A DNA stretch of 64,000 bases from Nitrosopumilaceae archaeon (GCA_965207375.1 OZ242274.1:544001-608000); one strand, 5' to 3'. Positions 11,399-41,755 are shown, counted from the first letter of the stretch. Numbers and translations: made by a program. The notes: generated by a model from the letters alone, not told the origin.

Positions 11399-11689
11399 AT
11401 GCAGAAAAGAATTTTAGCAGGTGTTTTGATGAGTGTGGGAATAACGATATCTGTCTTGATATTTCCTTTTATATTCAACGGGGGCGGCAGCTGGAGTGGA
11501 CCGTCCGATGGATACGTACGACCTCCTTCTGATCTTCCGGCGTTGTTTCCAAGTCAGCATGACATTGACACAGTAGTTTGGGAGGCAGGAGTCTCAAACA
11601 CTACTGCGATTCTTGCACTAATTGAATCAGGATACAATGTAGAAGAGGCAGTCAGTCATTTACGCTATTGTACAGAAGTAGGGTTGTAA
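11399..11689 (+). CDS. Small N-terminally membrane-anchored hypothetical protein
   Basis: MQKR followed by a hydrophobic helix. Its ATG overlaps the ISH3 TSD. Confidence 0.55.
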   Translation: MQKRILAGVLMSVGITISVLIFPFIFNGGGSWSGPSDGYVRPPSDLPALFPSQHDIDTVVWEAGVSNTTAILALIESGYNVEEAVSHLRYCTEVGL

Positions 11690-11846
11690 CATATCCATTT
11701 TGGTAATCATATGTGAACACATGATAACCACCCCGGTGCAGTGCTAGTGGTGGATCGACCCCTGATTAGGTGTGGGCTATGCGCCCTGATAGATGTGTGC
11801 AGCTTCCGATCCGTCAACAAATCCGCAAGGAGGTGAAAGAAAAAGG

Positions 11847-12340
11847 ATGAAAACATACATTGGAATAGACATTGGAAAGAAAAAGTGTGACGTATGCGTC
11901 ATAAACGGTACAGGACGAGTACTTGAGACCTGTCAGTATATGAACACGGTAGCAGATGCTAAAAAGTTTGCAGGAACCATGGCACGAAAATACACGGGAA
12001 ATAAAAAAACATGCAGTGCTGCATGTGAAACTACAGGCAACATGTGGAATGTCACCTATACTAAATTTGAGGCAGCAGGCATACCAATCAAGCTTGCCAA
12101 TACGTACAAGATGGCTATAATTGCCAAGACTGGTAAAAAGACAGACAAGGTGGATGCACAAAAGATAGCACAGGTATTACGAATGGATATGATTCCAGAG
12201 TGTCCTGCAACCAGAATCCGAGCCAATTATGCTACCTACACCAAAATCGATACCTGATCTATTTCCCAAAGAATCAGATGCACAAAATTAACCGCCTGAC
12301 TGAGGAAATTGGAACGTCTTGATAATGAAATTGAGCATAT
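11847..12340 (+). pseudogene. IS110-family transposase fragment
   Basis: SD AGGAGGTGA, then MKTYIGIDIGK, ACETTG and KKTDKVDA. Frame degenerates after ~12200; coiled-coil remnant to ~12340. Confidence 0.85.
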
Positions 12341-12483
12341 CAACTGACAAAAGCAGCAATTGAAACTACAAACAGTAAAGCTGAAAAGAGAAAATCGAGG
12401 ATCTGCAAATAATCTCAACGGAGCAAATCCAGATAATTATACAGTTGAAAAAATCAAGCAGACAATTTTTGTCACCTGATGCT

Positions 12484-12681
12484 CTAGTTCTTTCTAATTG
12501 ATTCTAAAGAATGGCCTTTGTTAGTAACCATCTGAATTACTGCATCAGTTGGGTAATCAATACCATGCTCGTCTTCAAAATGATTTCTTAGCTCCTCAAT
12601 AAGAGAAATACTTGTTTCTCCATCTAGTTTAAAATTGCATTCAAAACCATAATCTTGACATTGCAGTACGATGCTCATCAA
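12484..12681 (-). CDS. DUF1059-like small metal-binding protein
   Basis: CQDYGFECNF...H...HG pattern. Confidence 0.75.
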   Translation of the reverse strand: MMSIVLQCQDYGFECNFKLDGETSISLIEELRNHFEDEHGIDYPTDAVIQMVTNKGHSLESIRKN

Positions 12682-12930
12682 TCCACGTTTTTAAAATAAC
12701 CTATAAAAACCATATTCATCTTTTTTATCAAAAACCATCTGAGTTTATTGCATTTTTATTCACATCTAATTTGTCTATAGTTGTAAGGGTATCAAACTTG
12801 CAGTATCTGCATGCACAATATTGGGGGTGTAATTTCTCAGTTTACCAAAAACTCCCACTATATCATCATGCCAATATTCTTACAATCTTTCTTGTAGAAA
12901 TTAATTGCAGGCTAGTGCCAACTGTCTCCA

Positions 12931-13224
12931 TCAAACCAATCTTTCTTGTATGGCCTCAACATAACGTGAATTGTATTTTGTAAAAAGTCTGATTTTATTT
13001 TGAGGCAACGCCATTGCTCCTGGCCTAGAATTGATCTCTTTTTCTAACTGCATCTGTCTTAAATTCTGCGTTTTTAATTCCTCTTTTGTTAAATTATCTA
13101 GATTTTTTAGCAACAGTGTCATCTCCTGCTCTAGTGCAACTCTGGTATCTTCTACATCGGGTTTGGCACCTAGAATTTCTTTGGCCTTGATTTTGCCAAA
13201 TACTAATTCATCTAGTTCTATCAT
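12931..13224 (-). CDS. Hypothetical protein
   Basis: 97-aa ORF with normal composition, divergent from the J-domain gene. Confidence 0.65.
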   Translation of the reverse strand: MIELDELVFGKIKAKEILGAKPDVEDTRVALEQEMTLLLKNLDNLTKEELKTQNLRQMQLEKEINSRPGAMALPQNKIRLFTKYNSRYVEAIQERLV

Positions 13225-13309
13225 GTAACCTCAAAATTTCTAGTTATTATAAAATCAATCCAGCCTGTCAACTATGATAAACTAAAAGTATGATGATTTT
13301 TGTAAAAAA

Positions 13310-14473
13310 ATGCAGGCAGATTCGATGGAAAGCAATTTTGACATCTTGGGGATTTCTGAAGGTTCATCATCTGGTGAGATCCGTGAGGCATTCAGAAAAT
13401 TGGCACTTACGCATCATTCGGATCGAGGTGGCCAAGATGAGCAATTCAAAAAAATCAAACAGGCATATGAGGATCTCAAGGAAGGCAAAAAATATCCAGA
13501 TACAGATGCTGAACTAAAAAGAAAATCACGTGTTTATTCAGACGACTCTGATGAGCAAATCAGACGCAAGAATGCGTTGCTTGCAAGAGAACTAGTCAAA
13601 GATATGAAAAATGCAGAGGAATGGATATCTGCGTTGAACCGTGCAGATACTGCTGCAACTAGGTTATTTGGTTCTAAAACTCTGGGTGAAATAGAGTTTG
13701 AAAGAAAGGCAACAGGAGCAGTTTTGATAAAGGGCAACTTTATGGCAGGAAAATTAACATATGACGGACCTATTTTTGTACAGGGCAACATTACAAGTCC
13801 TTCATGGAGTCCGGATGACTCTACGATAATACGTCTAACAAAAGGCGACTTTAAAATGATAAATCCGTTAGAAAACAAATACAAAATTGAAAACGGCGCA
13901 AAAATTATTGTTGACAGCGGAGATATTGTAGTTGGAAACGTATTTGGCAAAAAGGACAAAATTCAGGATCCCGACGGCAGAGTAGGAATCTACAACATTC
14001 GGGAACATAGAACCGAATTAAATGCACCATGCGGTAAAATTATTGTAGAAAACTCTGTCAATACTGTATATCTTAACGGCGATACCATTATTGCCCTTAA
14101 TCTAGAAGATGATGTAAAAATCAGGGGCCGCCAAATTCTAATCTACGGCAGCAAGATCACATACGATGTAGAGATTGAACTGCTCAAAGACGGCACAGTA
14201 AGATTCTTTGAGAACTTTTCAATCCAGGGCCTAAGCGATGATTCCACTATAAAATTGGAAAACGGAAAATCAATAAAGCTGCGCGATGTAAAAGTAAAAA
14301 AGATACGTGACCTGCCCAAAGAACTAGTGATTGATGCCAAATCATACGGCAAAGATGATACCATGGTGGGCCGGGGCTTTACAATTACTTATGCCATGCT
14401 TGATAATTTGGATAAAAAACCCGTAAAACGCCAGGGTAGATGGGCATCCAAATTTGGCTTTGGAAGAAATTGA
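13310..14473 (+). CDS. DnaJ/J-domain protein with large C-terminal beta-rich region
   Basis: FDILG...IREAFRKLALTHHSDRGG...FKKIKQAYE. Confidence 0.82.
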   Translation: MQADSMESNFDILGISEGSSSGEIREAFRKLALTHHSDRGGQDEQFKKIKQAYEDLKEGKKYPDTDAELKRKSRVYSDDSDEQIRRKNALLARELVKDMKNAEEWISALNRADTAATRLFGSKTLGEIEFERKATGAVLIKGNFMAGKLTYDGPIFVQGNITSPSWSPDDSTIIRLTKGDFKMINPLENKYKIENGAKIIVDSGDIVVGNVFGKKDKIQDPDGRVGIYNIREHRTELNAPCGKIIVENSVNTVYLNGDTIIALNLEDDVKIRGRQILIYGSKITYDVEIELLKDGTVRFFENFSIQGLSDDSTIKLENGKSIKLRDVKVKKIRDLPKELVIDAKSYGKDDTMVGRGFTITYAMLDNLDKKPVKRQGRWASKFGFGRN

Positions 14474-14734
14474 TGCAGGCCTAGTAAGGTTCATGCACGG
14501 ACTGCCTGTCTTTTTGGATTACATCCTGTACGACAAGACAGCATTATAACACCGCTGGCAAATACAAAAGACGGTACAAGTGTGGTACCATGATAATACA
14601 ATAAACCCTGGCAACAGTGTCATTGACTTGAGACATATGCCAAAGTTGACGAGTCAACCATTTCTGTATCTTGACCCGTTACAGGCAATTAACACTAAAC
14701 CAAAATAAAAATAAATTAAAATGATTGAACGTTT

Positions 14735-15034
14735 CTAGTCGACTAGTTCAGTCCAACCTTTTACGAAGACTGAATTCTTGTAGAGTGGAACTGGTTGTCC
14801 AACGGTAAAGTCCATTGGTCTCATCCAGAATATTGCTTTTGTTGGGCAAACGCCAATGCATGCTCCATCGGAGATACATCTTTCTGGGTAAAAGACAAAT
14901 GCTTTACCTCTCTTCCAGCCTTCTACTGGTTTTACTCTAAGGACATCTGGGCCCAATGTTGTACAGATTTCTACACATAGTGCGCATCCGATACACATTT
15001 GTTCGCTGATGTCTGGAATAATTCCTACTGGCAT
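14735..15034 (-). CDS. 4Fe-4S dicluster ferredoxin
   Basis: CIGCALCVEIC and CISDGACIGVCP motifs. Confidence 0.92.
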   Translation of the reverse strand: MPVGIIPDISEQMCIGCALCVEICTTLGPDVLRVKPVEGWKRGKAFVFYPERCISDGACIGVCPTKAIFWMRPMDFTVGQPVPLYKNSVFVKGWTELVD

Positions 15035-15087
15035 AACGATATTATCTCATAGTCAGATCTTAATATAACTTGCCCAAAAATTACACA

Positions 15088-15122
15088 TTATAACGGCGTT
15101 TCCAAATTTTATAACAGCGTTT
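15088..15122. promoter_or_regulatory. Tandem direct repeat upstream of the ferredoxin promoter
   Basis: TTATAAC(G/A)GCGTTT twice with a 21-bp period, just upstream of the minus-strand TATA (~15060-15069). Confidence 0.4.
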
Positions 15123-15142
15123 GAAAATCTGATCGCATGTTC

Positions 15143-15712
15143 TCAAATTTTGATAATTTTCTCGACTTGATTCTCGGCAGATAGAATTTCAATTTGGTCG
15201 GTACTGACAAAAAATTTTGATATTGACCTGTTTTCCAAGACATGTCTTCCGGTAGGATAAAGTATCCAAGCATCTCCTCTTAATTTGGCAACACTACTTA
15301 GAAATATCTTTGATTTACGGTTCCTAGACATGCTTGCAAGCATCATCATACATGAATTACAGTATCTGCCAGAATTCTTGTCATCAAATAATGTAAAGAA
15401 TCCATTTAACGAGTCAACCATCAAAACATGCTCCTCACTTGAAATTCTCTCTATAATCTCTTTGAGAGTATCGTTCCAACTTTTCCTATCTGGAGTAAAC
15501 AAAAGCACGTCGGCTTGTTTTTTTATTATATCTGACTGAACATACCCAGAATATAATAAATCAAGATCAAGATAGATTGTGGGAATGTCATACTCTTTGA
15601 TTATTTTCGCAATTATTGCCTCTTTTGCAAATCCGTTATGACACAAAATTGAATTTATAGAATCTGCAAACACCTCTCTTAGTTTTATATTGTTAGGATT
15701 TTTATCCAACAC
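15143..15712 (-). CDS. Hypothetical protein, degenerate RecA/KaiC-like fold
   Basis: IYLDLD and LMVDSLNG beta-strand motifs without a Walker A. Confidence 0.55.
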   Translation of the reverse strand: MLDKNPNNIKLREVFADSINSILCHNGFAKEAIIAKIIKEYDIPTIYLDLDLLYSGYVQSDIIKKQADVLLFTPDRKSWNDTLKEIIERISSEEHVLMVDSLNGFFTLFDDKNSGRYCNSCMMMLASMSRNRKSKIFLSSVAKLRGDAWILYPTGRHVLENRSISKFFVSTDQIEILSAENQVEKIIKI

Positions 15713-15739
15713 TTTTTTTATTTTATTTGATGTATAATA

Positions 15740-16891
15740 ATGAAGTTAGACTCTGATGATATTATTTGTGATTTTGCCCATGACGGAAAAACATACCTAA
15801 ACAACGCCTCAGTCTCGCTAATGCCATTGCAAAGCATTGATGCAATGAGGGATTTTTTGATTCAATACAGTGCCATGGGTCCTGATTCGGCGGCCTCAGA
15901 ATCCTTTGTGACCCAAAAATTCAAAAATGTGCGCAAAACCATCTCCAAAATCATCAACTGTCAACCTGAAGAAATCATCATAACTCAAAGTGTTACTGAT
16001 GGAATCAATCTTGTATCCAACGGACTCTCCTTTGATGCAGATTCTGAAATTATTATCCGCGGTCTTTCTCATGAGCACCATGCCAATTATTATCCGTGGC
16101 TCAAACTCGGAGACCGATACAAGCTGCGGAATCTTTTGGTTACCAAAGACGGCCTTTTTGACATAGACTTGTTACAGCAAACTATCAACGAAAATACAAA
16201 ATTGCTATCCCTAAGTCACGGATTGTACAATACAGGTGCAATCCTGCCCGTTGATACAATCGGACAAATAGCTAGACAAAATAACATTGTGTATTTTGTA
16301 GATGCAGCTCAAACCGTAGGATGTACTGATCTTGTCAATGTTAAAACCATGCATTGTGATTTTATGTCATTTAACGGCTCCAAATGGCTTTGTGGTCCGA
16401 TGGGCACAGGCATCTTTTACTGTAACAAAAAATCAAGCCAGTTACTGACGCCACCTACAATAGGCGGCGAATCTGCAATGTTACATGAGGGCAGACTTGC
16501 ATACAAAGACATTCCAGACAAGTTTCAAACGGGATTTCGAAATTACGCTGGCCTAGTTGGCCTCGAAAGCTCTACAAGCTATCTAGCTGATTTGGGAATC
16601 CATAATATCCGCAAAAAAATAATCACACTTGCCAATATCCTGCGTGATGAGCTATCGCACATTTCAGGTGTTACACTGTATGGTCCACAAAACGAGAATC
16701 AGCGTACAAGTATAGTGTCATTTTGTATTGACGGCTTTGAACCAAAGTATGTTGTTGAAAAATTAGAAAAGCACGGCGTGGTTTTGGCAGTACGTGAAAT
16801 TGTACAAAAAAAGATTATACGCGCCTCGCCACATCTGTTTAATTCTGAAAAAGACATCATGTCGGTTATAGAATTGATAAAACAGCTATGA
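15740..16891 (+). CDS. Class V PLP aminotransferase / cysteine desulfurase-like protein
   Basis: YLNNAS, EHHAN, VDAAQ, NGSKWLCGP and IRASPH motifs. Confidence 0.88.
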   Translation: MKLDSDDIICDFAHDGKTYLNNASVSLMPLQSIDAMRDFLIQYSAMGPDSAASESFVTQKFKNVRKTISKIINCQPEEIIITQSVTDGINLVSNGLSFDADSEIIIRGLSHEHHANYYPWLKLGDRYKLRNLLVTKDGLFDIDLLQQTINENTKLLSLSHGLYNTGAILPVDTIGQIARQNNIVYFVDAAQTVGCTDLVNVKTMHCDFMSFNGSKWLCGPMGTGIFYCNKKSSQLLTPPTIGGESAMLHEGRLAYKDIPDKFQTGFRNYAGLVGLESSTSYLADLGIHNIRKKIITLANILRDELSHISGVTLYGPQNENQRTSIVSFCIDGFEPKYVVEKLEKHGVVLAVREIVQKKIIRASPHLFNSEKDIMSVIELIKQL

Positions 16892-17146
16892 TTTTTCCTG
16901 TTCCTCTATCACCATCATGGTCAGAGTAGATTGTACCTTTGCTATCTTTCTAATTTTATTGGTGATAACTGCGCGTAAAACCTCTGCACTTGCAGCAGAC
17001 ACCTTGATCACAATATCGTATACTCCATAAACTCCCCGTACCTCATATGTGATTTCATCCTGTGCATCTAAGATCTGCTTTACTTCCTTAATTATGGATT
17101 CGTCAGAACCCAGATCCGAATTAAGTAAAACGTATGAAGTAGGCAC
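16886..17146 (-). CDS. Stand-alone Lrp/AsnC ligand-binding (RAM) domain protein
   Basis: YVLLN...GVYGVYDIVIKV...STLT. Confidence 0.88.
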   Translation of the reverse strand: MPTSYVLLNSDLGSDESIIKEVKQILDAQDEITYEVRGVYGVYDIVIKVSAASAEVLRAVITNKIRKIAKVQSTLTMMVIEEQEKS

Positions 17147-17429
17147 ATTTGAGAATCCACAGGGACAATATTTAACCTTTCAAAAACACTTGCAAAAAAC
17201 AGGATCAAATGTACCGTTATTTCAAAGGCAGAGTTACAAAAATGTGGTATTTTGCTGTCTGCTTGCTGTAGGCTATTCTGTCTATCACTTTCATACGAGG
17301 TATTGTAGCGCCAGCCCTCAGATTCAACATAGACAGTACGTAGCCGTAGGAGAAAAATTCTTCATATAGCATCTATCTAACGAAAATTGAAAGTTTATAT
17401 CATAATAAAAGGCAGATTGTTGCAAGAAT

Positions 17430-19217
17430 TTGAATAAAATAAAATTAGCAATACCCATGTTTGCACTAATTCTCTTGGTGCCATCAGTAGTACTTGCACA
17501 ACAAACAAATGAATTAAACACAAAAGAAATAGATAATCCTCACATTTTATCACCTAGTGATGTTGTAGGTCCGGTAGGACGAGCTGATGACTTGAATGCC
17601 GCTCACAGTGAATTAACTAATATAATGCAACAACAGTCTTTTGGAAATTTTGATACACCTGATTATCCCTTCATCCTAACAGCAGTTGATGAGCAAAAAG
17701 GTGACCTTGTTGTAGTGATGCATGCAATGGCGGCTGTGGCTAACATCGAATACGAAGAAGAAGAGATTGCAATTGCACTGAACACAGATGTTCCTATTGA
17801 TATTCAGTATGGTGTCTTTGTCTTAGAAGTGTCTCAATCAAGAATTGAGAGCTGGAAGCAGTACTATAAGGATAATTGCATTCCAGTAAAAGCAGGTTAT
17901 CAGACAGTCTGTAAAATTTTTGGAGATAACCTAAGAAAGGAAGGAATTGATCCTGATTCTTTAGGTTCTACATCTCCTGTTACTCCAAAACCTACAAAGT
18001 CAACCTCTCCATGTGATGAGGACGAAGATTCACTGGCTTGTTATTATTACAAACGGTACCAGGACAAATGCATTCCAACTAAAACCACATCTAGATGTGA
18101 TACTTATGCAACCCAGATTAAAAATGCAGGATATGAAGTACCAACTACAAAGCCCGCAACTATAGTCAAAGTTACACCACCAAAAGTTACTGGCCTACAG
18201 GCTGCAATGTCTGGTGATGATATCAAGGTAACATGGAATACGCCGCAATATGCAGTTGACAAGTATAGAGTGAACATATATGAAGATAACATACGTGTTG
18301 ATAGAGAGTATGTATATACAAACTCTTACACATACGATGAGGTAAAAAAAGGCAAAGATTACAAGTTTAGAGTGTATGTCTACTATGAGAGTAATGCGAA
18401 ACTGACATCGACTTATGGCGGATCTGTTTGGTCTAATGTGGTAAGTGTACCTGCTGGTACAACTACGATAACACCAGAATCCAATCCAAATCCTACCACG
18501 GCAGTTGAGACAAACTCGACGGCAATATATGGTGGAAATCTATACAATTTAAAAGTACAAAACAATACGCATAATTCTAACAGACTATCAACGGTTACAA
18601 TAGGTGCAACAAACAGTACCGGCTCTACAGGTGTTGTAGTAAGTGGTCACGGTATCATCTTACCTACAGGTTTTACATTTGCAGGTCATGCATTTGGAGC
18701 TAACAGTACTCTATTCTCAAATAGCATGGTACTAGTCCATTATGGACCACAAATAGATGCCTCATTCATACCAATTACAGAGCCTAACATAGTAGCAGAA
18801 AACAAAGTTCAATCTTTAACTGGAGATATAATATCTGTGGTCAATGGAACTTTGAGCAGTGTGCCGCATCTTGAAACTTTGTCCATCTATGGAAGTCAAA
18901 CAAATGGTAATGGTACTTTACTATACAAAAATGCTACGTCATTTTCAAATGAGGACAACCAACTCTTAACCAATGCAGGAATAGCTTTGTATCCTAGCAC
19001 TAATGGTGATAGTGGGGCTCCAATAACATACAACAATAGTGGAACTATACACATAGTCGGTGTGCATCATGGTGGTGTGTGTATTTTTCAACCAGTATCT
19101 ACTCCGAACCACAAAATTGATGTGAGTAATTATCCAAATTACTGCACTCCAGGCGCTACTTATTACAAGTTATTTAGTGCATGGGAACATGTAAGGGAGA
19201 CACTTTCGCTACAATGA
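17430..19217 (+). CDS. Secreted multidomain trypsin-like (S1) serine protease with FN3 domain
   Basis: Signal peptide, two Cys-pair repeats, FN3 (IKVTWN..YRV..YKFRV), and triad VVSGHG / IDASF / GDSGAP. Confidence 0.75.
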   Translation: MNKIKLAIPMFALILLVPSVVLAQQTNELNTKEIDNPHILSPSDVVGPVGRADDLNAAHSELTNIMQQQSFGNFDTPDYPFILTAVDEQKGDLVVVMHAMAAVANIEYEEEEIAIALNTDVPIDIQYGVFVLEVSQSRIESWKQYYKDNCIPVKAGYQTVCKIFGDNLRKEGIDPDSLGSTSPVTPKPTKSTSPCDEDEDSLACYYYKRYQDKCIPTKTTSRCDTYATQIKNAGYEVPTTKPATIVKVTPPKVTGLQAAMSGDDIKVTWNTPQYAVDKYRVNIYEDNIRVDREYVYTNSYTYDEVKKGKDYKFRVYVYYESNAKLTSTYGGSVWSNVVSVPAGTTTITPESNPNPTTAVETNSTAIYGGNLYNLKVQNNTHNSNRLSTVTIGATNSTGSTGVVVSGHGIILPTGFTFAGHAFGANSTLFSNSMVLVHYGPQIDASFIPITEPNIVAENKVQSLTGDIISVVNGTLSSVPHLETLSIYGSQTNGNGTLLYKNATSFSNEDNQLLTNAGIALYPSTNGDSGAPITYNNSGTIHIVGVHHGGVCIFQPVSTPNHKIDVSNYPNYCTPGATYYKLFSAWEHVRETLSLQ

Positions 19218-19462: not shown

Positions 19463-19499
19463 ACTAGACAGGACCTTTTTCAACCATATCAACAAAATA

Positions 19500-19747: not shown

Positions 19748-19848
19748 GTAAGTGTTAATGTCACGCTTGAATTTTTATTCTATCTTTTGACAGCAAAGTA
19801 ATTTCGTGCCTAAAATTATTATAAATTCAAAACAACGTTAACAGATAC
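19748..19848. mobile_element. 101-bp MITE (copy 2, inverted)
   Basis: Reverse complement of 8954-9054 with 2 mismatches; 8-bp TSD CAATAAAT. Confidence 0.92.
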
Positions 19849-22177: not shown

Positions 22178-22253
22178 CTTTTATGTTGACAAACATAAAA
22201 TTTAAGCAAATCTTATCGTAATCCTAAAACACAGGTTGTATTCTTTAGTTTAT

Positions 22254-22748
22254 GTGAGTGCACCAGGAAACATATGGCGAAAGGTTCATGGAATCGTGGC
22301 CAAAAAACCTACCAATTTTTCATGGCTTATTACAGGAAAACTTGCAGGCTCTGGAATGCCAACATCGTCTGCCGAATTTGATTGGATTTGCAAACAGGGT
22401 ATCTGCTCTATTGTTACCATGACTGAAAACGCGCTTTCTGATACGTGGACCCAAAAGATTGACTATTTGCACGTGCCAACTCCTGATCTTACAGCTCCTG
22501 ACATGGAAGAAATTGACTCTGCAGTTGACTTTATACAAAACCAAATAAAACAGAAAAAACCCGTTATGGTTCACTGTGCTGCCGGATTGGGTAGGGCAGG
22601 CACGATTCTTGCCTGTTATCACGTCAAATATCTCAAATACTCTAGTACCGATGCAATTGATAAGATCAGACAGGAGAGGCCTGGATCAATTCAGTCCAAG
22701 GTGCAGGAGATAGCAATTGCACTTTATGAAAAACATGTAAAAAATTAA
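22254..22748 (+). CDS. Dual-specificity protein phosphatase
   Basis: VHCAAGLGRAG active-site motif. Confidence 0.9.
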   Translation: MSAPGNIWRKVHGIVAKKPTNFSWLITGKLAGSGMPTSSAEFDWICKQGICSIVTMTENALSDTWTQKIDYLHVPTPDLTAPDMEEIDSAVDFIQNQIKQKKPVMVHCAAGLGRAGTILACYHVKYLKYSSTDAIDKIRQERPGSIQSKVQEIAIALYEKHVKN

Positions 22749-32504: not shown

Positions 32505-34153
32505 GTAACAGATCGACTTTCTGAAGTTGTCTAGAAAATCGATCTGACAGCAGAAATTATTACTGACATGTCAATATACTTGAGTATTGTACCCGTATCA
32601 AAACATCAGATGAAACAGTATCTTTTACTATAAGGAAATATCTAGGCAGCAGCTGCTAGTACCGGCAGTTGTGGTTTTACACACACGGGAAGACATGCCA
32701 CAGGCATTGGTATGTCAGTAACCTTGCCATCAAGAAAATCCTTAAAGAATCGATACGGATTGATTCTGCGTACATTGCAGGTGGCATAGATTGTGGCAAG
32801 CGTTTCTGTAGTTTCTAGGCCTCTCTTAGATCTATTTCCGTACAGTATTTTGCGCATCAGAGCCACACCTCGTAGCGCCCTCTCGCTGGTATTGTTGTGA
32901 TATTCAACATTAGGATGACGCAAGAATGTAAGTAGTTGATTTCTTTCTCTCTTGAGCCGCTTGGCATATCGCTTACAATCCTTGTCAGAATATTGCTGCT
33001 CTGCAAGCGTATCTATTCTGTTCTGTAACGAATCTATCAGCTCTGATGATATGTCCTTTTCATCCCATGCATCCTGTGCACTCTTGAATATGTTGTGCAA
33101 CTCTTCAAATAATTTCTTAAACTCGTCACTATCAGTGCAGTCTTTGGTGCGATACATGTCGCGATGATAATGTAACAGACATCTCTGCTGCTCTTTACCG
33201 AGATCGTTCCATCCCGGATAAGAATCTGAATTCGTAATTCCGTCAAATTCGCCCAGTATTGCCTCTGCTACCAGCTTGCTGCGGGTAGGTGCTATGTGGA
33301 ACAATCGAATGTATTGAGATGCAAATACCCACACCCAGAACCTTTTCTCGTCAAGGTGCCAACCCGTCTCGTCTCCGTATATCACGCCTGCCTTGATTAG
33401 ATCCTCAAGCAGAGAATCATACAATGGTCTGCACATATCCGATACCTTGTGACACATTTTGACTAGAGTTGAATCAGGTATGTGTTTTCCATACATCATA
33501 GATATGATGAGACGTATCTTTTCAAAGGATATTGACATGTTTCGTAACACTACGACCATGGCCATTATGTTATTGCCATAGTGCTCGTTTGAGAGTACCT
33601 CAGGCACGTGTGCAAATTGTTGAAATTTACAGTTTTTGCAGTAACGACGCATGATCGTCCATTGGGTACTGCACCATCTTCCGTCTACAACATCCTCAAT
33701 GGTTCTGGTGTACGAATTTGCAGATTCAGACAGTATATTGCCGCAGTTTGTACAGTGCAGCATGTCTGCTGTTTTCTTTCTTGTATCTGGACTGGTCTCA
33801 TATGTTTTCTTTCTCTCAGGTCTGGTTTCTGTATGCGGGTATTCCTTGAACTCTCTTTTGTTATAGCTACGTAATTTGCCTGATTTGTGCCGTTTGGTCT
33901 TTAGTTTTAAATTCTCTTCTTCTAGCTGTTTTATTTTGTCTTTTAGCTGTGTGTTTCTTTTATCTCCGTATTCTTCTTTTCTACAGCATCAAATCTTTTG
34001 TTGAAAAATTCTAATATTTTGATAACATCTGGGTTATTCCAATCAACATCGGTAATCTCAAATCCCGAAATCAACGATTTATGTTATGAATACGTGATCA
34101 ATATGTCTTGCTATTTTGCTTTATAAGAGAACTTCAGAAAGTCGAGGTGTTAC
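32505..34153 (-). mobile_element. IS66-family element (single-ORF type)
   Basis: TIRs GTAACAGATCGACTTTCTGAAGTT and AACTTCAGAAAGTCGAGGTGTTAC; 8-bp TSD CTAGATAT. Confidence 0.93.
32642..34073 (-). pseudogene. IS66 transposase; 373-aa core open, N-terminal coiled coil frameshifted
   Basis: CxxC..CxxC finger, GDETGW, SDSY and NNTSERALR. The upstream DWNNPDV/coiled-coil part lies in other frames. Confidence 0.85.
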
Positions 34154-34217
34154 CTAGATATCCATTGATGGGAAGATAACCCGTCTGGTTAAAGTTTAGT
34201 ACACCGCGTCCTGCATA

Positions 34218-34316: not shown

Positions 34317-35096
34317 ATGAAAAATCTGCAATACACAATCCCGTTTTTGACACTGATTCTACTAGTTCCAGGAACTGCTTTTGGACAAAATGCTGACAAA
34401 TACTCGCTGGATGAAATTAACAGTGCATTTGAAAATACGGAAAACTATGTAACATATACAGATAAGAAAAATCAAATGAAAATCGATGTTGCATCAATGA
34501 AATCAGATGGAATTGATAAAAAAGATATTAAGATAATAAAACAATATGCCAAGGTACATAACAAGATCATGAAATCTTTTCTAAACCATGGTAACATGAC
34601 GGCTGTTGTAGATTATGCAAAAACCGGAAAGTTCAGTCAATTATTCACGCCAACTGAATTACCAATAACTGGACAGAGCCACCAGAATACTGACTATCTA
34701 AGCCTATATGCATGTGGCATTTGGGCGTGGCAATCTCACACCGAACCTCCCGTCCTTGTTGGAAAACAGGGTTATTCCTCACTTTCTGCTATTCAAAAGG
34801 CAATAGTAAGTGACGGTTATCATCAGGTACAGCAACCTTGGGCAGATAAACGTGATGTAGGTTATACATATGCAAAAATAAACCCTATAGGTATAGGAGG
34901 ATGTAATGGCGGCGAGTTTAGAGACGAAAATCATATTTATTCCCCAGATGCAATACACGAGGATGGTAAAGGCAATATCTTAACTGACTGGCATTCATTA
35001 ACCCAGTTTAACTAACCAAATCCTGAATTAGATGACTATGTTACACCTACGCTTTGGTGGGATGTATATGTTGCCCTGTGGCATTATTCTGGCTGA
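34317..35096 (+). pseudogene. Secreted pre-pro-protein with a premature TAA at 35013
   Basis: Signal peptide; the frame continues after the stop (QFN*PNPELDDYVTPTLWWDVYVALWHYSG*) to within 9 bp of the next gene. Confidence 0.7.
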
Positions 35097-35105
35097 CCTT
35101 GTATT

Positions 35106-35333: not shown

Positions 35334-35693
35334 TCGATTTGTAGAGTAATAATCTAGGCGTGCAAAAATCCTCATTGTTCAAAATATATGACATGATATT
35401 GCACATTCTGCATTATTTCATAGAATCATTGTAATACCCAAGGCTTGACTGTATCATGGCACCAGAAATCTCTTTTATGTCTAGTTGCTAGTTTGATACA
35501 ATGCTCCTTGATTGGCGGTGCCTCTGGTGATTTCGTTTAGCTGTTCGTTGTCACGTTCTACGCGTTCAAACCGTCCTATGACGTACTTCGTATAATTTCA
35601 CCACATCTGGGTTGTTCCAATCATAATACGGCACATGGATACTTGTTCACGTAATAGTTAATTTGTACCCAAATGGTTCTAATTGCAAATTAC
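35326..35693 (-). mobile_element. Internally deleted IS66-related remnant
   Basis: Left end GTAACTGATCGATTT, right end ...AAATTAC. Encodes YDWNNPDVVK, homologous to the IS66 N-terminus near 34040. Confidence 0.6.
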
Positions 35694-35702
35694 GCCCGTA
35701 GA

Positions 35703-37466
35703 TTATTCTCCATCATCTGCATCTCCACGCCTAAGATCTCCTATGCCATACTCTTCAATAATTGCATCTCTTTGCTCATCAAGAGAACTGATCTCTTCGG
35801 CCTCTCTCTTTTCATCGCCTTGGTATACCGTACGTATTGGCCACGGGATTCGAATGTCGTTCTTTTTGAATTCATCATAAATGTACATCAGCATGTCTGT
35901 TTTGATCTTGTACTGGGAACCATAGTCTCGAACATACACCCATAAGGTAAAATCCAAAGATGAATCATTGAATCTATTAAAACGAACCACAGGTTGACTA
36001 ATATCTGAGTGTATGTCTTTGTCGCATCCGCAACTTGGTTTGTTATTATCTAGATACGGACATCTGATCTGTCTTACAACGTGCCTGCCCTTGCCGTCAG
36101 TAACCTGTACCATGGCTTTTTTTCCAACCTTGACCAAAATAGCTGCCACCTGTCTTGGATTATTCAAATATGAAACTCCTACCTCTACAACGGCTGGCAC
36201 CATCTTGATCTCCTTTGAATAATTAATTATCTGCGCATTAACTAGCTGTCTTGTAGGAATTATGGCAAAAGATTCGTTTAATGCATCTCGAAGATATGTA
36301 ACCCTTGGCGTAATTTTGTGTACATAGCCGTTGTATCCTGTATCTAGCTTTATTCGATCGCCTTCGACAAATATTTTGTCCTTTCTAATTAATATATACG
36401 CAAAATAATTCTGCATAGTTTCTTGTAATGCAAAACCTATACCTATTGCCAATCCACCTGTAGCGGTTGCAAGAACAACAAGATCGACTCCCCACCAGCT
36501 GACTACTCCGATTAACACCCCAATGAAAATTCCCAACGGCAAAATCTGGGAAATCGATTTTGGCAAATCCTGGCGTTTTCTGTGCGCGTTTCCTGGAGGT
36601 CGTGCCCCTGCAAGAATGGCTTCAAAACCACCCATTCTTTTTTCTTCCCGCCAAATATCAATAGGATAGATCTCTTCGGGCTCCTGACCTGTTTTCAGTT
36701 TTTTTCCTGCCTGATTTTTACCTGAGACACAGCTTTGAAAATAATCTTCATACTTTTTTCTTTCATTTTTCTTCCAGTCTTCAAATGGATTCTTTATGAG
36801 TGCCTCGTAACTTCCGATGGGAATTCCTTTTGTGGTTCTATATCCTTCTAAATACATTCTGCCCTCCTCGGTTTTCCTCTTTTCCTCAAACTCCTCCTCG
36901 GACATATCTTCAGGTGCCTGCGTTGGCGCAACCCACTTGAAAAATTTATGAAATACATCTCCTACATCGTCATGAAATCCTCTTAATTCCTTCCATGCCT
37001 CAAAGTCTTCTTTTTCTAGTACCGCCTTTGCCCTTTTTGTCAGTATTATGGGAATCAAATGCGCAACAGCATATCCTACAACAAGAATATTTATGGTGTT
37101 TAGAATCTTTGCAAATGTTTCACCTGCCGTCATCTGTTCACTATACATTGCTGCAATCCGTTCTACTTCATCATCAAATAATTCAAAGGTTTGAATATAC
37201 GCATTAGTAGATGAAACCAACACTATGGCAAAGAACGGCAATATTGCAACCCTGACAAGCCTAGATAAGTGTGGCCTGTGATAATAGAATTTTTGCGTCT
37301 TGACCCAGTTAGAAAATTTGTAATAACCTAAAACGATACCTACTATTCCAATTACTAGTACTATAAATGCGATTTGTAGCGACGTTGATGAGGACAACAA
37401 TTGTGAAAGTGTATCAAACTGCCCAACCTGACTTGATACTGCATCTATAATCTCTTCTTCTGCCAT
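35703..37466 (-). CDS. MscS-family mechanosensitive channel with large insertion
   Basis: GIGFALQETMQNYFA, GDRI, IINYS, GVSY and IRIPWP motifs. Confidence 0.88.
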   Translation of the reverse strand: MAEEEIIDAVSSQVGQFDTLSQLLSSSTSLQIAFIVLVIGIVGIVLGYYKFSNWVKTQKFYYHRPHLSRLVRVAILPFFAIVLVSSTNAYIQTFELFDDEVERIAAMYSEQMTAGETFAKILNTINILVVGYAVAHLIPIILTKRAKAVLEKEDFEAWKELRGFHDDVGDVFHKFFKWVAPTQAPEDMSEEEFEEKRKTEEGRMYLEGYRTTKGIPIGSYEALIKNPFEDWKKNERKKYEDYFQSCVSGKNQAGKKLKTGQEPEEIYPIDIWREEKRMGGFEAILAGARPPGNAHRKRQDLPKSISQILPLGIFIGVLIGVVSWWGVDLVVLATATGGLAIGIGFALQETMQNYFAYILIRKDKIFVEGDRIKLDTGYNGYVHKITPRVTYLRDALNESFAIIPTRQLVNAQIINYSKEIKMVPAVVEVGVSYLNNPRQVAAILVKVGKKAMVQVTDGKGRHVVRQIRCPYLDNNKPSCGCDKDIHSDISQPVVRFNRFNDSSLDFTLWVYVRDYGSQYKIKTDMLMYIYDEFKKNDIRIPWPIRTVYQGDEKREAEEISSLDEQRDAIIEEYGIGDLRRGDADDGE

Positions 37467-37770
37467 GCCTACATCTTTGGCAAAAGTTAGGTATCTTGGT
37501 TAATAATTGTTGTATGATATCATATTTTTTATCAATTTTTGTAAAAAATTATCTTAAAAAACGGCTATTTGTACCCGGGTATCGGCACCTGTGGATTTGT
37601 TCCTTGTACTATTGCCTGATGCAGGCAGGATATGCACAAATATTGTTGATTGTTCAGGCACAAATTGTCATACCTGATATGCCAAATCAGGCACAAAATA
37701 CTGAGGCCATCTAGATGTGTATTGCCCACTGCTTGTAACATTTAACAAGGACTGTAGCTAAATCTATGAA

Positions 37771-39123
37771 TTGAGCTTGGAAACTGCATGGGATGATTCC
37801 CCGTCACTGAAATCATACACACTGAATAATTTCAGGTCCTTGCCCCAAATTCAAAATATTTCTGAGGACAAACAATTTGAAATGGAGGTTGTTGGAAACG
37901 TCTTGCCATTTAAAGCAAATAACTATGTAGTAGAACAGTTAATTGACTGGAATAACATACCAAACGACCCAATGTTTGTTCTGACATTTCCACAGCGAGG
38001 AATGTTAAAACCAAAACATTACCAACAAATGGAGGAAACTCTGAAAAAAGGCGCAGATAAATCTGAAATTGCCAAAGTAGCAAATGAAATCCGCCTGCAA
38101 TTAAATCCGCATCCCGCAGGACAAATGGAATTAAACGTTCCAGTCTTGTCTGATGGAACAAAACTATACGGAATGCAACACAAATACAAAGAAACCTGCC
38201 TTTTCTTTCCTAGTCAGAGTCAGACCTGCCATGCATATTGTAGTTTCTGTTTTAGATGGCCGCAGTTTGTGGGAATGGATGAAATGAAATTTGCAATGAA
38301 GGAAAGCGAATCCTTAATTCAATATGTAAGTGAACATCCTGAAATTACCGATATACTATTCACCGGAGGTGATCCGATGATCATGAAGGCAAAAATTTTC
38401 AAAACATATGTTGATTCGTTATTGTCTGCAGATTTGCCCAATCTGAAAACCATTAGAATTGGAACCAAATCTCTGGCCTATTGGCCCTACAAATTTTTGA
38501 CAGATGCCGATGCAAACGATATGCTAGAAACATTTGCAGATGTGACCGGCAAAGGACTTCATCTAGCGTTTATGGCCCACTTTAATCATATTGCAGAGCT
38601 GTCAACTGGCCCCGTAAAAGATGCAATAAGGCAGGTCAAAAAAACGGGCGCTGAAATCCGGACACAATCCCCGTTACTTGCACACATTAACGATGATGCA
38701 GACATGTGGGCACAAATGTGGAGAAAACAGGTTCAACTCGGCTGTATTCCATATTACATGTTTGTAGTACGGGATACGGGCGCACAACATTATTTTGGAG
38801 TTTCACTAACAAAGGCGTATGAGATTTTTAAAAGTGCATACATGCAAACAAGCGGCCTGTGCCGTACGGTAAGGGGTCCTAGCATGTCTGCTACCCCCGG
38901 CAAGGTGCTAGTTGACGGCATATCCACAATTAATAACAAAAAGGTAATCTCACTTCGATTTTTACAGGGAAGAAACCCACAATGGGTTCAAAAGCCGTTT
39001 TTTGCCCAATATGATGATACGGCAATATGGCTAGACGATCTAAGGCCTGCATTTGAAGATCGGTTCTTTTTTGAAGATGAATTACACCAAAAATACGGCC
39101 AGGCAAAAACTCTAGCAAAATAA
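37771..39123 (+). CDS. KamA-family (lysine 2,3-aminomutase-like) radical SAM protein
   Basis: HKYKET, CHAYCSFCFR, TGGDPM, HFNH, PYYMF and TPGK (PLP lysine). Confidence 0.88.
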   Translation: MSLETAWDDSPSLKSYTLNNFRSLPQIQNISEDKQFEMEVVGNVLPFKANNYVVEQLIDWNNIPNDPMFVLTFPQRGMLKPKHYQQMEETLKKGADKSEIAKVANEIRLQLNPHPAGQMELNVPVLSDGTKLYGMQHKYKETCLFFPSQSQTCHAYCSFCFRWPQFVGMDEMKFAMKESESLIQYVSEHPEITDILFTGGDPMIMKAKIFKTYVDSLLSADLPNLKTIRIGTKSLAYWPYKFLTDADANDMLETFADVTGKGLHLAFMAHFNHIAELSTGPVKDAIRQVKKTGAEIRTQSPLLAHINDDADMWAQMWRKQVQLGCIPYYMFVVRDTGAQHYFGVSLTKAYEIFKSAYMQTSGLCRTVRGPSMSATPGKVLVDGISTINNKKVISLRFLQGRNPQWVQKPFFAQYDDTAIWLDDLRPAFEDRFFFEDELHQKYGQAKTLAK

Positions 39124-39198
39124 TAATTTTTACTCTTAACCATCTAGCTAAAACAATCTCACTTATCATTATTTAGTAAATTAAAACCGATAAATAGC

Positions 39199-40644
39199 AT
39201 GGATGCAAGTACAGTCCTAAAAACCATTGAGGATAAAAATATAACATTTATAGATTTCTGGTTTGTCGATATTTTCGGCGAATTACACCGAATGGGCATG
39301 CCAAGCTATGCCATTGACGAATCTAGTTTTACAAACGGCCTTGAAAAACTAGATGGAAGCTCAATTGCTGGCTTTAAATCAATAAACCAATCAGACATGA
39401 TTTTAAAACCCGATCCATCATCATTTCGAATTTTACCTCCAGACTATGATAACGGTCACAGAATAAATGCAAGAATCATCTGTGATTTGTATGAGGGAAA
39501 TACAACAGAGGAATCCCGCTATAACAGGGACTCGAGAGGAATATCCTACAAGGCCGCATCCAAGCTAAATGATTTTGGCTTTACCCATACAAACTGGGGA
39601 CCCGAGGTTGAATTCTTTGTTTTTGATAATATCAACGTCTATCCCTCCCCCTATGCTGCAACACACTCTGGAGGCGGCTCTGGATATTCAATTGAATCCA
39701 AGGAATCTCCCTGGGCAAAAGGCAACATAAGCACAGCCATAGATTTCAAAGAGGGATATTATCCGTCACAACCAAAAGACACCCTTGAAACCTTTAGAAA
39801 GGACGTCTGTGACGATCTGTACAAATATTTTGGAATTAAAATTGAGGCAGAACATCACGAGGTAGCAACATCTGGACAATGTGAAATTAACCTTGTTTAT
39901 GACGACATGTTAAACATGGGTGATAATGTAATTACAGTAAAAAATGTTGTAAAGGTAAAGGCAAAACGGCAAAACAAGGTTGCCACCTTTATGCCAAAAC
40001 CAATATTTGGAGATAATGCATCTGCAATGCACACACATCAGAGCTTGTGGAACGACAATACAAACGCAATGTATGATCCTGATGATGATGTGGCACAACT
40101 AAGTCAGGTTGGAAGGTATTATGTGGGTGGATTACTTGATCATGCATCTGCGCTATGTGCAATATCTAATCCTACTACCAACTCTTACAAACGACTAGTT
40201 CCAGGATTTGAGGCTCCAGTTAACATGTGTTGGGGCATTGGAAACAGGTCTGCTGCAATTCGAGTTCCAATGTATTATCGTAATCAGGAAAAAAGCAAGC
40301 GAATTGAATATCGGGTTCCAGATCCGACTGCAAACATCTATTTGCTAGAGGCAGCACTGCTTTTAGCCGGATTGGATGGAATAAAGCAAAAACTTGATCC
40401 CGGTGATCCCGTAAAAGAAAATGTATACAAATTAACTAGTGAAAAGAAAAGAGAATACAGAATTGGCTCACTGCCTGTCTCGTTAAAGGGAGCACTAGAC
40501 GCCTTGAACAGTGATCAGGATTTCCTATCAGAGGTATTTACCGTTGATTTTCTAGATATCTACAAGGAATTAAAGCAAAAAGAATATGTCGCATTTGCAC
40601 AAACTCCCACCCCTTGGGAAGTTTCAATGTATACTGATTCTTAA
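39199..40644 (+). CDS. glnA: Glutamine synthetase type I
   Basis: DGSSI, GPEVEF, HHEVA, TFMPKP, NSYKRLVPG and RIEYRVPD motifs. Confidence 0.96.
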   Translation: MDASTVLKTIEDKNITFIDFWFVDIFGELHRMGMPSYAIDESSFTNGLEKLDGSSIAGFKSINQSDMILKPDPSSFRILPPDYDNGHRINARIICDLYEGNTTEESRYNRDSRGISYKAASKLNDFGFTHTNWGPEVEFFVFDNINVYPSPYAATHSGGGSGYSIESKESPWAKGNISTAIDFKEGYYPSQPKDTLETFRKDVCDDLYKYFGIKIEAEHHEVATSGQCEINLVYDDMLNMGDNVITVKNVVKVKAKRQNKVATFMPKPIFGDNASAMHTHQSLWNDNTNAMYDPDDDVAQLSQVGRYYVGGLLDHASALCAISNPTTNSYKRLVPGFEAPVNMCWGIGNRSAAIRVPMYYRNQEKSKRIEYRVPDPTANIYLLEAALLLAGLDGIKQKLDPGDPVKENVYKLTSEKKREYRIGSLPVSLKGALDALNSDQDFLSEVFTVDFLDIYKELKQKEYVAFAQTPTPWEVSMYTDS

Positions 40645-40686
40645 ACTGGTACAACTATCAATACGACCCAACATTGCACTGTTACT

Positions 40687-40776
40687 ATATCTGTTAATGT
40701 GGTTTTGAAATTATGTAGGTTTTAGGCACAAGTTTGCAATACCATAAAAAATACCAGGCAGAACGATAACAATTAC
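40687..40776. mobile_element. ~90-bp MITE related to the 101-bp MITE
   Basis: Starts ATATCTGTTAATGTGGTTTTGAA and ends ATAACAATTAC. Its 3' ~59 bp recur at 42426-42483. Confidence 0.65.
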
Positions 40777-40800
40777 CAAATTATAGATTTACAAAATCAA

Positions 40801-40935
40801 CAATAATTTCTGCTTTAGGTCGATTTTTTAGGCAACTTAAGAAAGTCGATCTGTTACGATTTATGTTATGATTACGTGATCAATATGTCTTGCTATTTTA
40901 CTTTATAAGAAAACTTCAGAAAGTCAAAGTGTTAC
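40801..40935. mobile_element. Two abutting IS66 ends
   Basis: 40801-40857 is the reverse complement of the 32505 end; 40858-40935 matches 34077-34153. Confidence 0.85.
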
Positions 40936-40945
40936 ATCGAATGAT

Positions 40946-41755
40946 TTATTCGGTGACTCTTATTGAAGCATACACCTTATTTCCAGAATCTGACTCTGTT
41001 GAAGTACATACAGTCCATGTGTTTTTTTTGTTGTTGTATCCAAAGTTCCACAAATTGTCATCATAGCAACTGTCAACCCAACTGTTCCCACTCTTTATTG
41101 AGACCCAGCTGTCTGTAGTCACTTCATTCACCGGAGGATGCCCACCCTTATACTGCGTACTTTGATAAGCCGAAAGCCATCCCGGATATGCATGTGATGG
41201 GAGAGTTACGGAAGGGAATGATTTTAGGTCGCCTGAGTTGCTGTTATAATTCATCCAACTGGACATGCACACCAACAGGCCATTCTGACACCAATATTTG
41301 TACTGCGCTCCTACCCTCCAATCATAAGATTGGTGTGAGACATTGGTTACTTTGTCATCTACCTCTTGCTGTCGAAAGCTCTCGAGAAGATTGTCCCACA
41401 TCTCAGGGTTTTCCTCATACAGGTGACGTGGGACTACGCCCGCCTTTAGCATCTCAGATATCATGCTGTTAAGTTTAGATTGCAGCTGCTCCTTTACGGA
41501 TGGATCGGTGGCATCTTCAATTTGCTTAAGAAGGTCGCCCGCCGTTCTGCTTACAGTTTCCTGGTTTGCAGGTAGTGGCATATCGATGGCATCGGTATTC
41601 AGGTTTGATTCTATCTGGCTCTTTATGTCTGCTGGCACATCGGTGTCAGGAAAGAGCTGATCATACAGGCTTTCGGTAGCAATTGCGGATGTAGGTATGA
41701 TGACAGCAACTACCAACAGCATAGAGACGTATAGAACTGTTGTAGTTTTAGTCAT
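40946..41755 (-). CDS. Secreted pre-pro-protein with Cys/Trp-rich C-terminal domain
   Basis: TTATATAA ~28 bp upstream of ATG 41755; signal peptide; acidic helical pro-region; four Cys in the C-domain. Confidence 0.72.
   Translation of the reverse strand: MTKTTTVLYVSMLLVVAVIIPTSAIATESLYDQLFPDTDVPADIKSQIESNLNTDAIDMPLPANQETVSRTAGDLLKQIEDATDPSVKEQLQSKLNSMISEMLKAGVVPRHLYEENPEMWDNLLESFRQQEVDDKVTNVSHQSYDWRVGAQYKYWCQNGLLVCMSSWMNYNSNSGDLKSFPSVTLPSHAYPGWLSAYQSTQYKGGHPPVNEVTTDSWVSIKSGNSWVDSCYDDNLWNFGYNNKKNTWTVCTSTESDSGNKVYASIRVTE

Follow-up and report, generated by a model that had tools for sequence, protein, structure and literature searches.

The DNA analyzed here, referred to as the window, is a stretch of 64,000 nucleotides from a Nitrosopumilaceae archaeon (C1:544001-608000 of the source assembly, genome G000). 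Its gene content is that of an ammonia-oxidising thaumarchaeon, including genes for PCNA, TFIIB, Cdc48, an MtrA-like protein, and glutamine synthetase, among which are scattered transposase genes of insertion sequences (ISs) of the IS630, IS110, IS4-type, and IS66 groups. This study concerns two-gene units in which a gene for an exported protein is followed by a gene for a small membrane-anchored partner. In the window, they are represented by P0001 and P0002, by P0003 and P0004, and by the separated members P0005 and P0006 (Table 1). The units are real, conserved, and coupled. Since their genes overlap or nearly touch, they are expected to be co-transcribed and are probably translationally coupled. 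Close relatives of one of the studied proteins include a hypothetical protein of Cenarchaeum symbiosum and proteins from several metagenome-assembled genomes (MAGs) named 'Nitrosopumilus sp.'.

Table 1. Genes of the two-gene units and adjoining mobile elements, in window coordinates.
Feature	Position	Strand	Description
DDE transposase gene	10173-11309	-	Pfam DDE_Tnp_1; 90 bp upstream of P0006, at the position of its lost large gene
P0006	11399-11689	+	96-aa orphan partner; N-terminal membrane anchor, GGGSWSG motif, UBA-like helical end
P0001	17430-19217	+	Exported pre-pro protein of 595 aa, TTG start
P0002	19214-19462	+	82-aa partner; start overlaps P0001 stop by ATGA
IS66-family element	32505-34158	-	Transposase gene 32642-33763 (Pfam DDE_Tnp_IS66, E 1e-37); ends set by repeats
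P0003	34317-35015	+	Exported protein, helical N-domain and Cys/Trp-rich alpha/beta domain; cut short by a nonsense codon
Former P0003 C-terminus	35016-35096	+	26 codons (PNPELDDYVTPTLWWDVYVALWHYSG) behind the premature stop
P0004	35106-35333	+	75-aa N-terminally membrane-anchored partner, two Cys in the outer part (CDEVLWQPPTNCQ)
IS66-derived miniature remnant	40817-40940		124 bp with both IS66 ends; repeats D2 and I2 versus the copy at 32505-34158
P0005	40946-41755	-	Exported 269-aa protein; gene intact, no partner behind

The protease pair and its slot in other genomes

From its N-terminus, P0001 comprises a signal peptide (IPMFALILLVP...VLA|QQ), a conserved pro-region, a Cys-rich linker, an FN3 domain, and a C-terminal S1-type protease domain. 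The fn3 match (E = 1.3e-6) is the only Pfam match of P0001 that passes its cutoff. The C-terminal 215 residues hold H407, D443, and S528, the latter within GDSGAP, and thus display both the ordered His/Asp/Ser residues and the GDSGxP motif of S1 enzymes. In the P0001 family, the His and Asp residues are invariant in 8/8 aligned sequences and the Ser residue with GDSGxP is present in 7/8; the truncated copy L008 has Asn in place of the catalytic Ser. Relatives of P0001 score 15.8-17.6 bits against Pfam Trypsin and Trypsin_2, under the cutoffs of 20.6 and 27.6. All matches obtained in a PDB profile search with P0001 were S1 enzymes, at weak E-values (0.024-0.035). One of them (E = 0.028) was entry 2pfe, which we take to be a pre-pro S1 protease of the alpha-lytic/streptogrisin type. 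P0001 resembles proteases of that type in having a large pro-region that is more conserved than the catalytic domain, an H-D-S triad, and GDSGxP, and differs from them by the additional Cys-rich linker and FN3 domain. By its motifs only, the C-terminal domain of P0001 is therefore classified as a putative S1-type (chymotrypsin-fold) serine protease.

P0002 consists of a basic N-terminus, a hydrophobic stretch of ~18 residues, the conserved motif FLVFYENCEANAQYP, a variable Pro/Glu/Lys-rich tail, and a terminal Cys; it might be cleaved after ANA|Q and released. The P0001/P0002 unit is present in three copies in the genome, in which the large protein is 86-89% identical and the small one 56-60%. 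The duplicated DNA begins ~70 bp ahead of the large gene and continues for at least 125 bp behind the small one. The ATGA overlap, which an earlier reading of the window made from the sequence alone (hereafter the sequence-only reading) had described correctly for the copy in the window, is retained together with the pairing in 3/3 paralogous copies. Substitutions and in-frame indels account for all differences among the three copies of P0002, each of which keeps the N-terminus, the FLVFYENCEANAQYP motif, and the terminal PC. Pairwise ratios of nonsynonymous to synonymous substitution rates (dN/dS, or omega) were 0.05-0.07 for the pro-region and Cys-rich linker, about 0.3 for the FN3 domain, 0.63-0.96 for the protease domain, and 0.7-1.2 for P0002. 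Thus, the protease domain and P0002 both evolve fast while the pro-region is strongly constrained, as expected from the rapid turnover that had been proposed. A word-based search of limited sensitivity among 5.8 billion clustered proteins detected no relative of P0002 outside the source genome. Prediction of a complex between residues 380-595 of P0001 and 27-82 of P0002 gave a score of 0.01 against a mark of 0.32, which speaks neither for nor against binding.

Additional features were observed around this unit and its paralogues. A 101-nt inverted repeat (8954-9054 and 19748-19848, 98% complementary) flanks a 10.7-kb segment that holds P0006 and P0001/P0002, and could mediate its inversion. 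A tandem 12-nt repeat, GGTGGCCAAGAT, is inserted at C1:1309489-1309700 (L011) in the conserved 3' flank of a P0001/P0002 paralogue. The decayed locus C1:862754-863557 (L016) encodes an N-terminal piece of 151 aa that is similar to the protease pro-region (...NPYLPN...); of the short open reading frames (ORFs) behind it, one has the leader-like sequence IPSFIFLILIP.

A profile search for the protease domain gave a match in 13 of 301 family genomes and in none of the 4 genomes of the same genus. A scan of metagenomes for this domain gave 182 pattern matches, none of which was confirmed. Outside the source genome, 27 loci of the P0001 family were read, of which 26 were evaluable. A partner was scored if a gene starting -60 to +150 nt from the protease stop encoded an N-terminally hydrophobic product. 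Such a partner was found at 16 of the 26 loci, in 8 of 12 other genomes, and at least 12 of the 16 partner genes overlap the protease stop. Five of the 16 partners are serpins located behind an N-terminal hydrophobic anchor (three loci in G022, one each in G011 and G306). The assignment is based on Pfam PF00079 (E = 5e-89 and 2e-110) and on our own hidden Markov model (E ≤ 1.5e-73 at the 5 loci), and the serpin genes lie directly downstream of the protease gene and overlap its stop. The source genome contains no serpin (best tblastn E = 0.25), P0002 has no serpin domain and no Pfam family, and the slot behind the protease is filled in this genome by an unrelated protein of 64-82 aa. We read the slot as that of an inhibitor mainly because the only partner of known function is a serpin, a serine-protease inhibitor. 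With a serpin in the slot of relatives, an enzyme and its inhibitor are indicated more than a polymorphic toxin or bacteriocin locus of the classical kind.

The same slot is informative on another role, in which the partner would serve in the membrane as a tether or maturation aid, retaining the exported protein at the cell surface or helping it to fold or become active there. This role would suit payloads that have no membrane anchor of their own and partners that have basic N-termini and an N-in/C-out topology. Conserved Cys residues in most partner ectodomains could form disulfides, and the tight gene overlap suggests matched protein amounts. We nevertheless regard it as distinctly unlikely, since the serpin found in three genomes is an inhibitor and not a tether, the Cys residues of the partners are mostly paired, suggesting internal disulfides, and a large conserved pro-region, which usually assists the folding of alpha-lytic-type proteases, is already present in the P0001 family.

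In ammonia oxidisers associated with sponges, serpins have been described next to secreted proteases of the S08A type (Moeller et al. 2019, PMC6790972). Protease-adjacent extracellular serpins are interpreted as control of the cell's own protease or as defence against host proteases (PMC6790972; Haber et al. 2021, PMC7848895). These pairs and the present ones belong to the same archaeal lineage and associate an extracellular protease gene with an extracellular serpin gene. They differ in that the neighbours are subtilisin-type S08A proteases there and an S1-type protease in the P0001 family, that the serpin of the relatives studied here is membrane-anchored and its gene overlaps the protease stop, and that the source genome has no serpin.

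Truncated and separated copies of the cysteine-rich families

The P0003 family comprises 24 relatives, with a helical N-domain and a C-domain containing two invariant Cys residues and conserved His and Glu residues; conserved positions of the family include H152, E154, E232, and H255. The sequence-only reading had described an intact large gene ending 9 bp ahead of P0004. The partner gene is present as proposed; the large gene is not intact, as an in-frame TAA codon at 35013-35015 ends the open frame and leaves a gap of 90 bp to P0004. The 9-bp gap is ancestral, separating P0004 from the former stop codon at 35094-35096. When the premature stop was read through as X, P0003 aligned without interruption to three relatives, and X233 corresponded to the Glu of EPNPE, which shows no variation among the 9 rows of alignment A4. 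The 26 codons behind the stop still encode the conserved W/H-rich C-terminus of the family. Based on the alignment of the read-through sequence and on this C-terminus, P0003 is a nonsense-truncated copy. The P0003 stretch is identical in contigs of two runs of one study, one of which may be the source of the assembly; since these contigs show no difference, the premature stop is not considered to be an assembly slip. In contigs from other studies, position 35013 was not covered. The IS66-family element stops 160 bp upstream of P0003. In run X5 of another study, a 4.7x contig lacks ~720 bases of the P0003 body (window 34361-35082), so that the leader runs directly into the final bases of the ancestral ORF, and retains P0004; a second X5 contig carries the 5' part of P0003 (34295-34715).

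Sixteen P0003-family loci were available for analysis of the downstream gene, three in the source genome, three in G004, two in G005, and eight in MAG records, several of which come from one isolate. The partner was defined as an ORF of 45-130 aa with a strongly hydrophobic segment, starting about -40 to +90 nt from the stop, and was counted by reading the translated junctions, a procedure that differs from the numerical criterion behind the background rate given below. A small hydrophobic downstream ORF was present at 15 of the 16 loci, L029 in G004 having none. Together with the 16 of 26 protease loci, this bears out the suggestion that the two-gene arrangement would be conserved in other genomes. 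The partners are of several unrelated types. One of them, G.C[VI]WP[ST]D...CYL, recurs in G004, in G005, and behind a broken copy in the source genome (E = 6e-15 between G004 and G005; matched by eye for the source genome). P0004 shares a short motif with the partner of the closest relative of P0003, in G005, the similarity being weak (E = 7e-4, 13 residues). The large proteins P0008 and P0011 are 63% identical and have unrelated partners, and no similarity was detected between P0004 and the 128-aa partner of P0008. Intact pairs include that of P0008 (C1:2153677-2154928) and the G005 pair of locus L023. These results indicate that the pairing is retained across genera while the partner sequences change.

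The P0003-family member P0008 was modelled with AlphaFold2 from 14 rows. The mean predicted local distance difference test score (pLDDT) was 74, with a confident helical N-domain and alpha/beta C-domain. For this fold, Foldseek found no match in the PDB at E ≤ 0.001, and the best Z score obtained with VIA-align over 48,161 chains (5.4) was within noise. PDB profile searches with the P0003 and P0005 families gave nothing below E = 0.2, and their domains have no Pfam, NCBIfam, or PADLOC match; more generally, NCBIfam and PADLOC provided no meaningful match for the studied proteins. A similarity of P0008 to CAP/cysteine-rich secretory proteins was suggested by the protein Atlas (0.88, 114-130 shared features, under the trust level). 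This lead was not supported, as 0/14 family members matched Pfam CAP at E ≤ 5 and no CAP chain was present among the 50 fold-search entries listed.

P0005 consists of a signal peptide, a pro-region (LYDQLFPD...), and a C-domain of ~135 aa that is rich in Trp and contains four Cys residues. Relatives numbered 23 among 1.84 billion representatives; in alignment A5 of the family, W226, C230, and C250 are invariant. The protein Atlas returned nothing for P0005 (best 0.85). The IS66 end that had been reported 10 bp behind the gene is present, at an actual distance of 5 bp, and belongs to the remnant that occupies the expected position of the partner. This remnant looks like a miniature non-autonomous IS66 derivative.

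P0006 has a match to UBA that is under the Pfam cutoff (E = 0.009). The position C1:1806046 harbors a C-terminal fragment of 53 codons from a second P0005-type copy, cut off by an IS, and the 102-aa anchored protein encoded behind this fragment is homologous to P0006 (BLASTP E = 2e-8, 27% identity over 90 aa). P0006 is best read as a partner of the P0005-family type because of this homology, which also substantiates its previous designation as an orphan partner. In G070, a P0005-type C-domain is followed by a small ORF with a GGW.G motif after a hydrophobic start, as judged by eye. No P0005-like remnant was found upstream of P0006. In the source genome, 3/3 copies of the P0005/P0006 family are split by mobile elements. 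The system is thus decaying in the window, with a nonsense codon in P0003, loss of the P0005 partner to an IS66 remnant, and loss of the P0006 large gene to insertion of a transposase gene.

Pairing against background, leaders, and neighbouring features

Frequencies of pairing were compared in the source genome using a downstream hydrophobic ORF of 40-140 aa as the criterion. Such an ORF was present behind 7 of 13 leader-bearing genes, three of which are the non-independent P0001 paralogues, versus 59 of 1,204 long ORFs (4.9%). Among long ORFs encoding a hydrophobic N-terminus, 17 of 210 had such an ORF, and 7 of these 17 were leader-type genes. An incidental pairing, with the small ORFs representing either hydrophobic frames that arose by chance in AT-rich DNA or small, unrelated membrane proteins, has in its favour the background rate of 4.9% in a genome of 38% guanine plus cytosine (GC), the omega value near 1 of P0002, and the dissimilarity of P0004 and the 128-aa P0008 partner. 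It is very improbable in view of the enrichment, of P0002 indels that are all in frame across three copies with conserved termini, of the occurrence of one partner family across genera (E = 6e-15) and of a P0006 homologue (E = 2e-8), and of the retention of the start/stop overlap.

The P0001 and P0003 leaders contain IPMFALILLVP and IPFLTLILLVP, as originally reported. Of the 15,079 ORFs in the assembly that encode 50 aa or more, 5 have the strict pattern IP....ILLVP, corresponding to the three P0001 paralogues, P0003, and an IS-truncated protease with a proprotein-convertase P-domain. A looser pattern added a sixth ORF, encoding a full-length P-domain plus S1 protease at C1:873845. By eye, the DNA of P0003 and of the P-domain protease agrees closely across the leader stretch. 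The second half of the leader (LLVP or LLIP, a few residues, a small residue, and Q) is common in other secreted proteins with different beginnings. Thus, the full motif is not a general trait of secreted proteins, in keeping with the sequence-only reading, and its LLVP...A/G-Q ending is common. P0001 and P0003 have only ~11 residues in common, which lie within an ordinary Sec-type signal peptide, and no relationship exists between their pro-regions.

A second stereotyped leader, MKNITNKTKTILFASLIAAMILPFS, was found in 7 ORFs of the source genome. Proteins from other data sets that begin with it have as their mature parts S1 proteases, a reprolysin-like metalloprotease, the P0003-family domain, and other Cys/Trp-rich domains. 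Among P0003-family proteins, those of the window and of G005 carry the first leader type, and P0008 together with its close relatives carries the second. In the P0005 family, P0033 and P0034 have an LLVP-type leader and P0005 a variant of the second type. A 242-aa protein encoded at C1:1393653 has the first leader, and a similar-looking protein (by eye) of locus L027 in G005 has the second. Since leader types alternate on related payloads between genomes, the leader is not a constant delivery domain. Of the 'conserved leader, variable payload' layout, the fast-evolving C-domain was recovered (omega 0.63-0.96) but not the constant delivery leader. Judged from their sequences, the leaders behave as stereotyped, alternating Sec signal peptides. 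Their n-regions are rich in Lys. Bacteriocin and halocin precursors are typically small peptides with a double-glycine or twin-arginine leader; the payloads studied here are of 232-595 aa, and their leaders have no RR pair and no GG cleavage motif. As a separate observation, three paralogous membrane-anchored proteins of 119-126 aa (...CDVTKEHAKLIAE...) are encoded in a cluster at C1:1672814-1675525, which adjoins a 451-aa second-leader gene and a piece of that gene's leader; directly downstream of the 451-aa gene is one for a DsbA-like oxidoreductase.

The preceding results bear on the proposal that the exported proteins are antagonistic effectors of the polymorphic-toxin or bacteriocin kind, directed against competing microbes or the host, and that the small membrane protein confers immunity on the producer and its kin. 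Consistent with antagonism, an immunity-like gene lies directly downstream of the payload gene, partner types are replaced between close payloads (P0008 and P0011), and orphan partners occur, namely P0006 and one that follows a truncated payload (C1:1805712). The low-depth X5 contig, which keeps the leader and P0004 without most of the P0003 body, the patchy distribution of P0001 homologues, the association of the loci with IS elements, and the fast evolution of the payload C-domain are further points in its favour. Polymorphic toxin systems, according to PMC8416519, likewise combine an exported protein whose C-terminal part varies with a small gene dedicated to it immediately behind, and show orphan partners, turnover, and mobile-element association. 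In the present case, the small gene right after the toxin gene has a positional equivalent only, at 7/13 leader genes and 15/16 P0003-family loci. Unlike the systems described in that account (PMC8416519), the units have no long constant N-terminal delivery domain, their constant part being a signal peptide only, no array of spare C-terminal cassettes, and no recognised toxin domain. No such array was present beside any locus read, isolated fragments being IS-truncated copies, and no payload matched a known toxin domain or defence family. The alternation of Sec-type signal peptides on related payloads and the absence of twin-arginine and double-glycine motifs also argue against antagonism, and the only recognisable partner, a protease inhibitor, is just as compatible with protection of the cell from its own digestive or matrix-degrading enzyme. 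Antagonism is therefore regarded as unlikely; the lack of cassette arrays and of matches to a known toxin family, and the serpin as the sole known partner, speak against the polymorphic toxin or bacteriocin layout advanced in the sequence-only reading.

Other features of the window and assembly were recorded. A gene at 22236-22748, inside the span of the units and adjoining none of them, encodes a 170-aa dual-specificity phosphatase, for which the best Pfam match is PF22784 (E = 5e-24), with an additional match to PF22785, 'polymorphic toxin system DSP-PTPase' (E = 4.6e-20). A 91-nt direct repeat (43152-43242 and 43296-43386, 99% identical, 144 nt apart) is located in a 509-aa ORF (43128-44657, minus strand) that has no Pfam family. 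Contigs C2, C3, and C4 of the assembly (0.43-0.93 Mb, GC 0.367-0.369) contain odd ORFs and may not belong to the archaeon. For instance, the frame of 1,036 aa at C3:411114-414224 has a reverse-transcriptase-like motif of the YADD type, and that at C3:535379-536452 contains long VPLVLMV repeats.

Proposed function and known counterparts

We tentatively propose, as the most probable of the readings considered though slightly short of even odds, that the units associate an exported hydrolase or effector with a cognate neutraliser tethered on the surface of the producer itself. In this proposal, the product of the first gene would be exported by Sec, and that of the second would be a small protein with its N-terminus in the membrane and the remainder outside the cell. 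The partner would bind and neutralise the cognate exported protein at the surface of the producer, thereby shielding the cell envelope or holding the enzyme latent until its release. P0002 would be a non-serpin substitute for the serpin, and the P0003/P0004 and P0005/P0006 families would work likewise.

Several observations weigh against neutralisation by the partner. P0001 had no Pfam Trypsin match at E ≤ 0.1 and no significant match to an S1 family, so that the S1 protease named in the sequence-only reading is identified by the triad and GDSGxP. The AlphaFold2 model of P0001, based on an 8-row alignment, was unusable (mean pLDDT 28). At 9 of the 26 evaluable protease loci there was no partner, one more locus being borderline, and 11 of the 16 partners found at the other loci have no Pfam family. 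P0002 has no similarity to any inhibitor family in Pfam, NCBIfam, or PADLOC, its tail looks disordered, and its omega value near 1 would also fit weak constraint. The leader genes at C1:108971, C1:888011, and C1:1671288 have neither a partner nor visible IS damage. Finally, binding or inhibition by the partner is proposed from sequence comparison and analogy, and the term inhibitor is a pure analogy for the partners of P0003 and P0005.

By analogy, the closest working counterpart of the units appears to be the KLIKK-peptidase/potempin system of Tannerella forsythia, in which potempins have been shown experimentally to inhibit the linked peptidases and to protect the cell surface (PMC9890683). 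In that system (PMC9890683), secreted enzymes of unrelated catalytic types are co-transcribed with a small (about 100-150 aa) membrane-anchored protein, stop and start codons overlap or nearly touch, the partners are almost unrelated to one another in sequence, signal peptides are strikingly similar on unrelated mature parts, and 'orphan' small ORFs are present. Protection of the producer's surface by the partner is established there (PMC9890683) and proposed for the present units. The systems further differ in that the source here is an archaeon with one membrane, the partner gene is downstream rather than upstream, the anchor is an N-terminal helix rather than a lipid, the stereotyped signal peptides are those of the large proteins rather than of the small ones, and a single payload family is recognisable as a protease.

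Among archaea, the VARTIG modules of Thermococcales also comprise a large secreted protein followed by small predicted membrane proteins, and specific clusters of membrane proteins go with specific subfamilies of the large protein, a further likeness to the present units (PMC8416519). VARTIG modules, as described there (PMC8416519), have hypervariable Ig domains and multi-gene arrays, in contrast to the two-gene units with protease or Cys/Trp-rich payloads reported here. A keyword search of the open-access literature, which is no proof of their being unpublished, found no description of the leader classes and small partner families.

A broader proposal is that the units form a new and widespread thaumarchaeal class of 'exported effector plus membrane-tethered immunity' modules. 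Cargo for a dedicated export or processing route would be marked by the stereotyped signal peptides (IPxFxLILLVP and MKNITNKTKTILFASLIAAMILPFS). The payloads, which change fast and comprise S1 proteases, metalloproteases, and no fewer than two new Cys/Trp-rich folds, would act on microbial competitors or the animal host, and each partner would be a new specific inhibitor or immunity fold. We consider this extension improbable in its full form.

Little is known of how animal-associated ammonia-oxidising archaea handle their own secreted hydrolases or interact with their hosts and neighbours. The loci described here show IS-driven erosion of such systems in progress, and their short length makes the pairs readily amenable to expression and inhibition assays. 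If the partners are cognate surface inhibitors, they would represent at least four new inhibitor or immunity families (the P0002, P0004, G.CVWP(S/T)D...CYL, and P0006 types), to which two new secreted domains would be added, and the units would be an archaeal counterpart of the bacterial peptidase/potempin arrangement.

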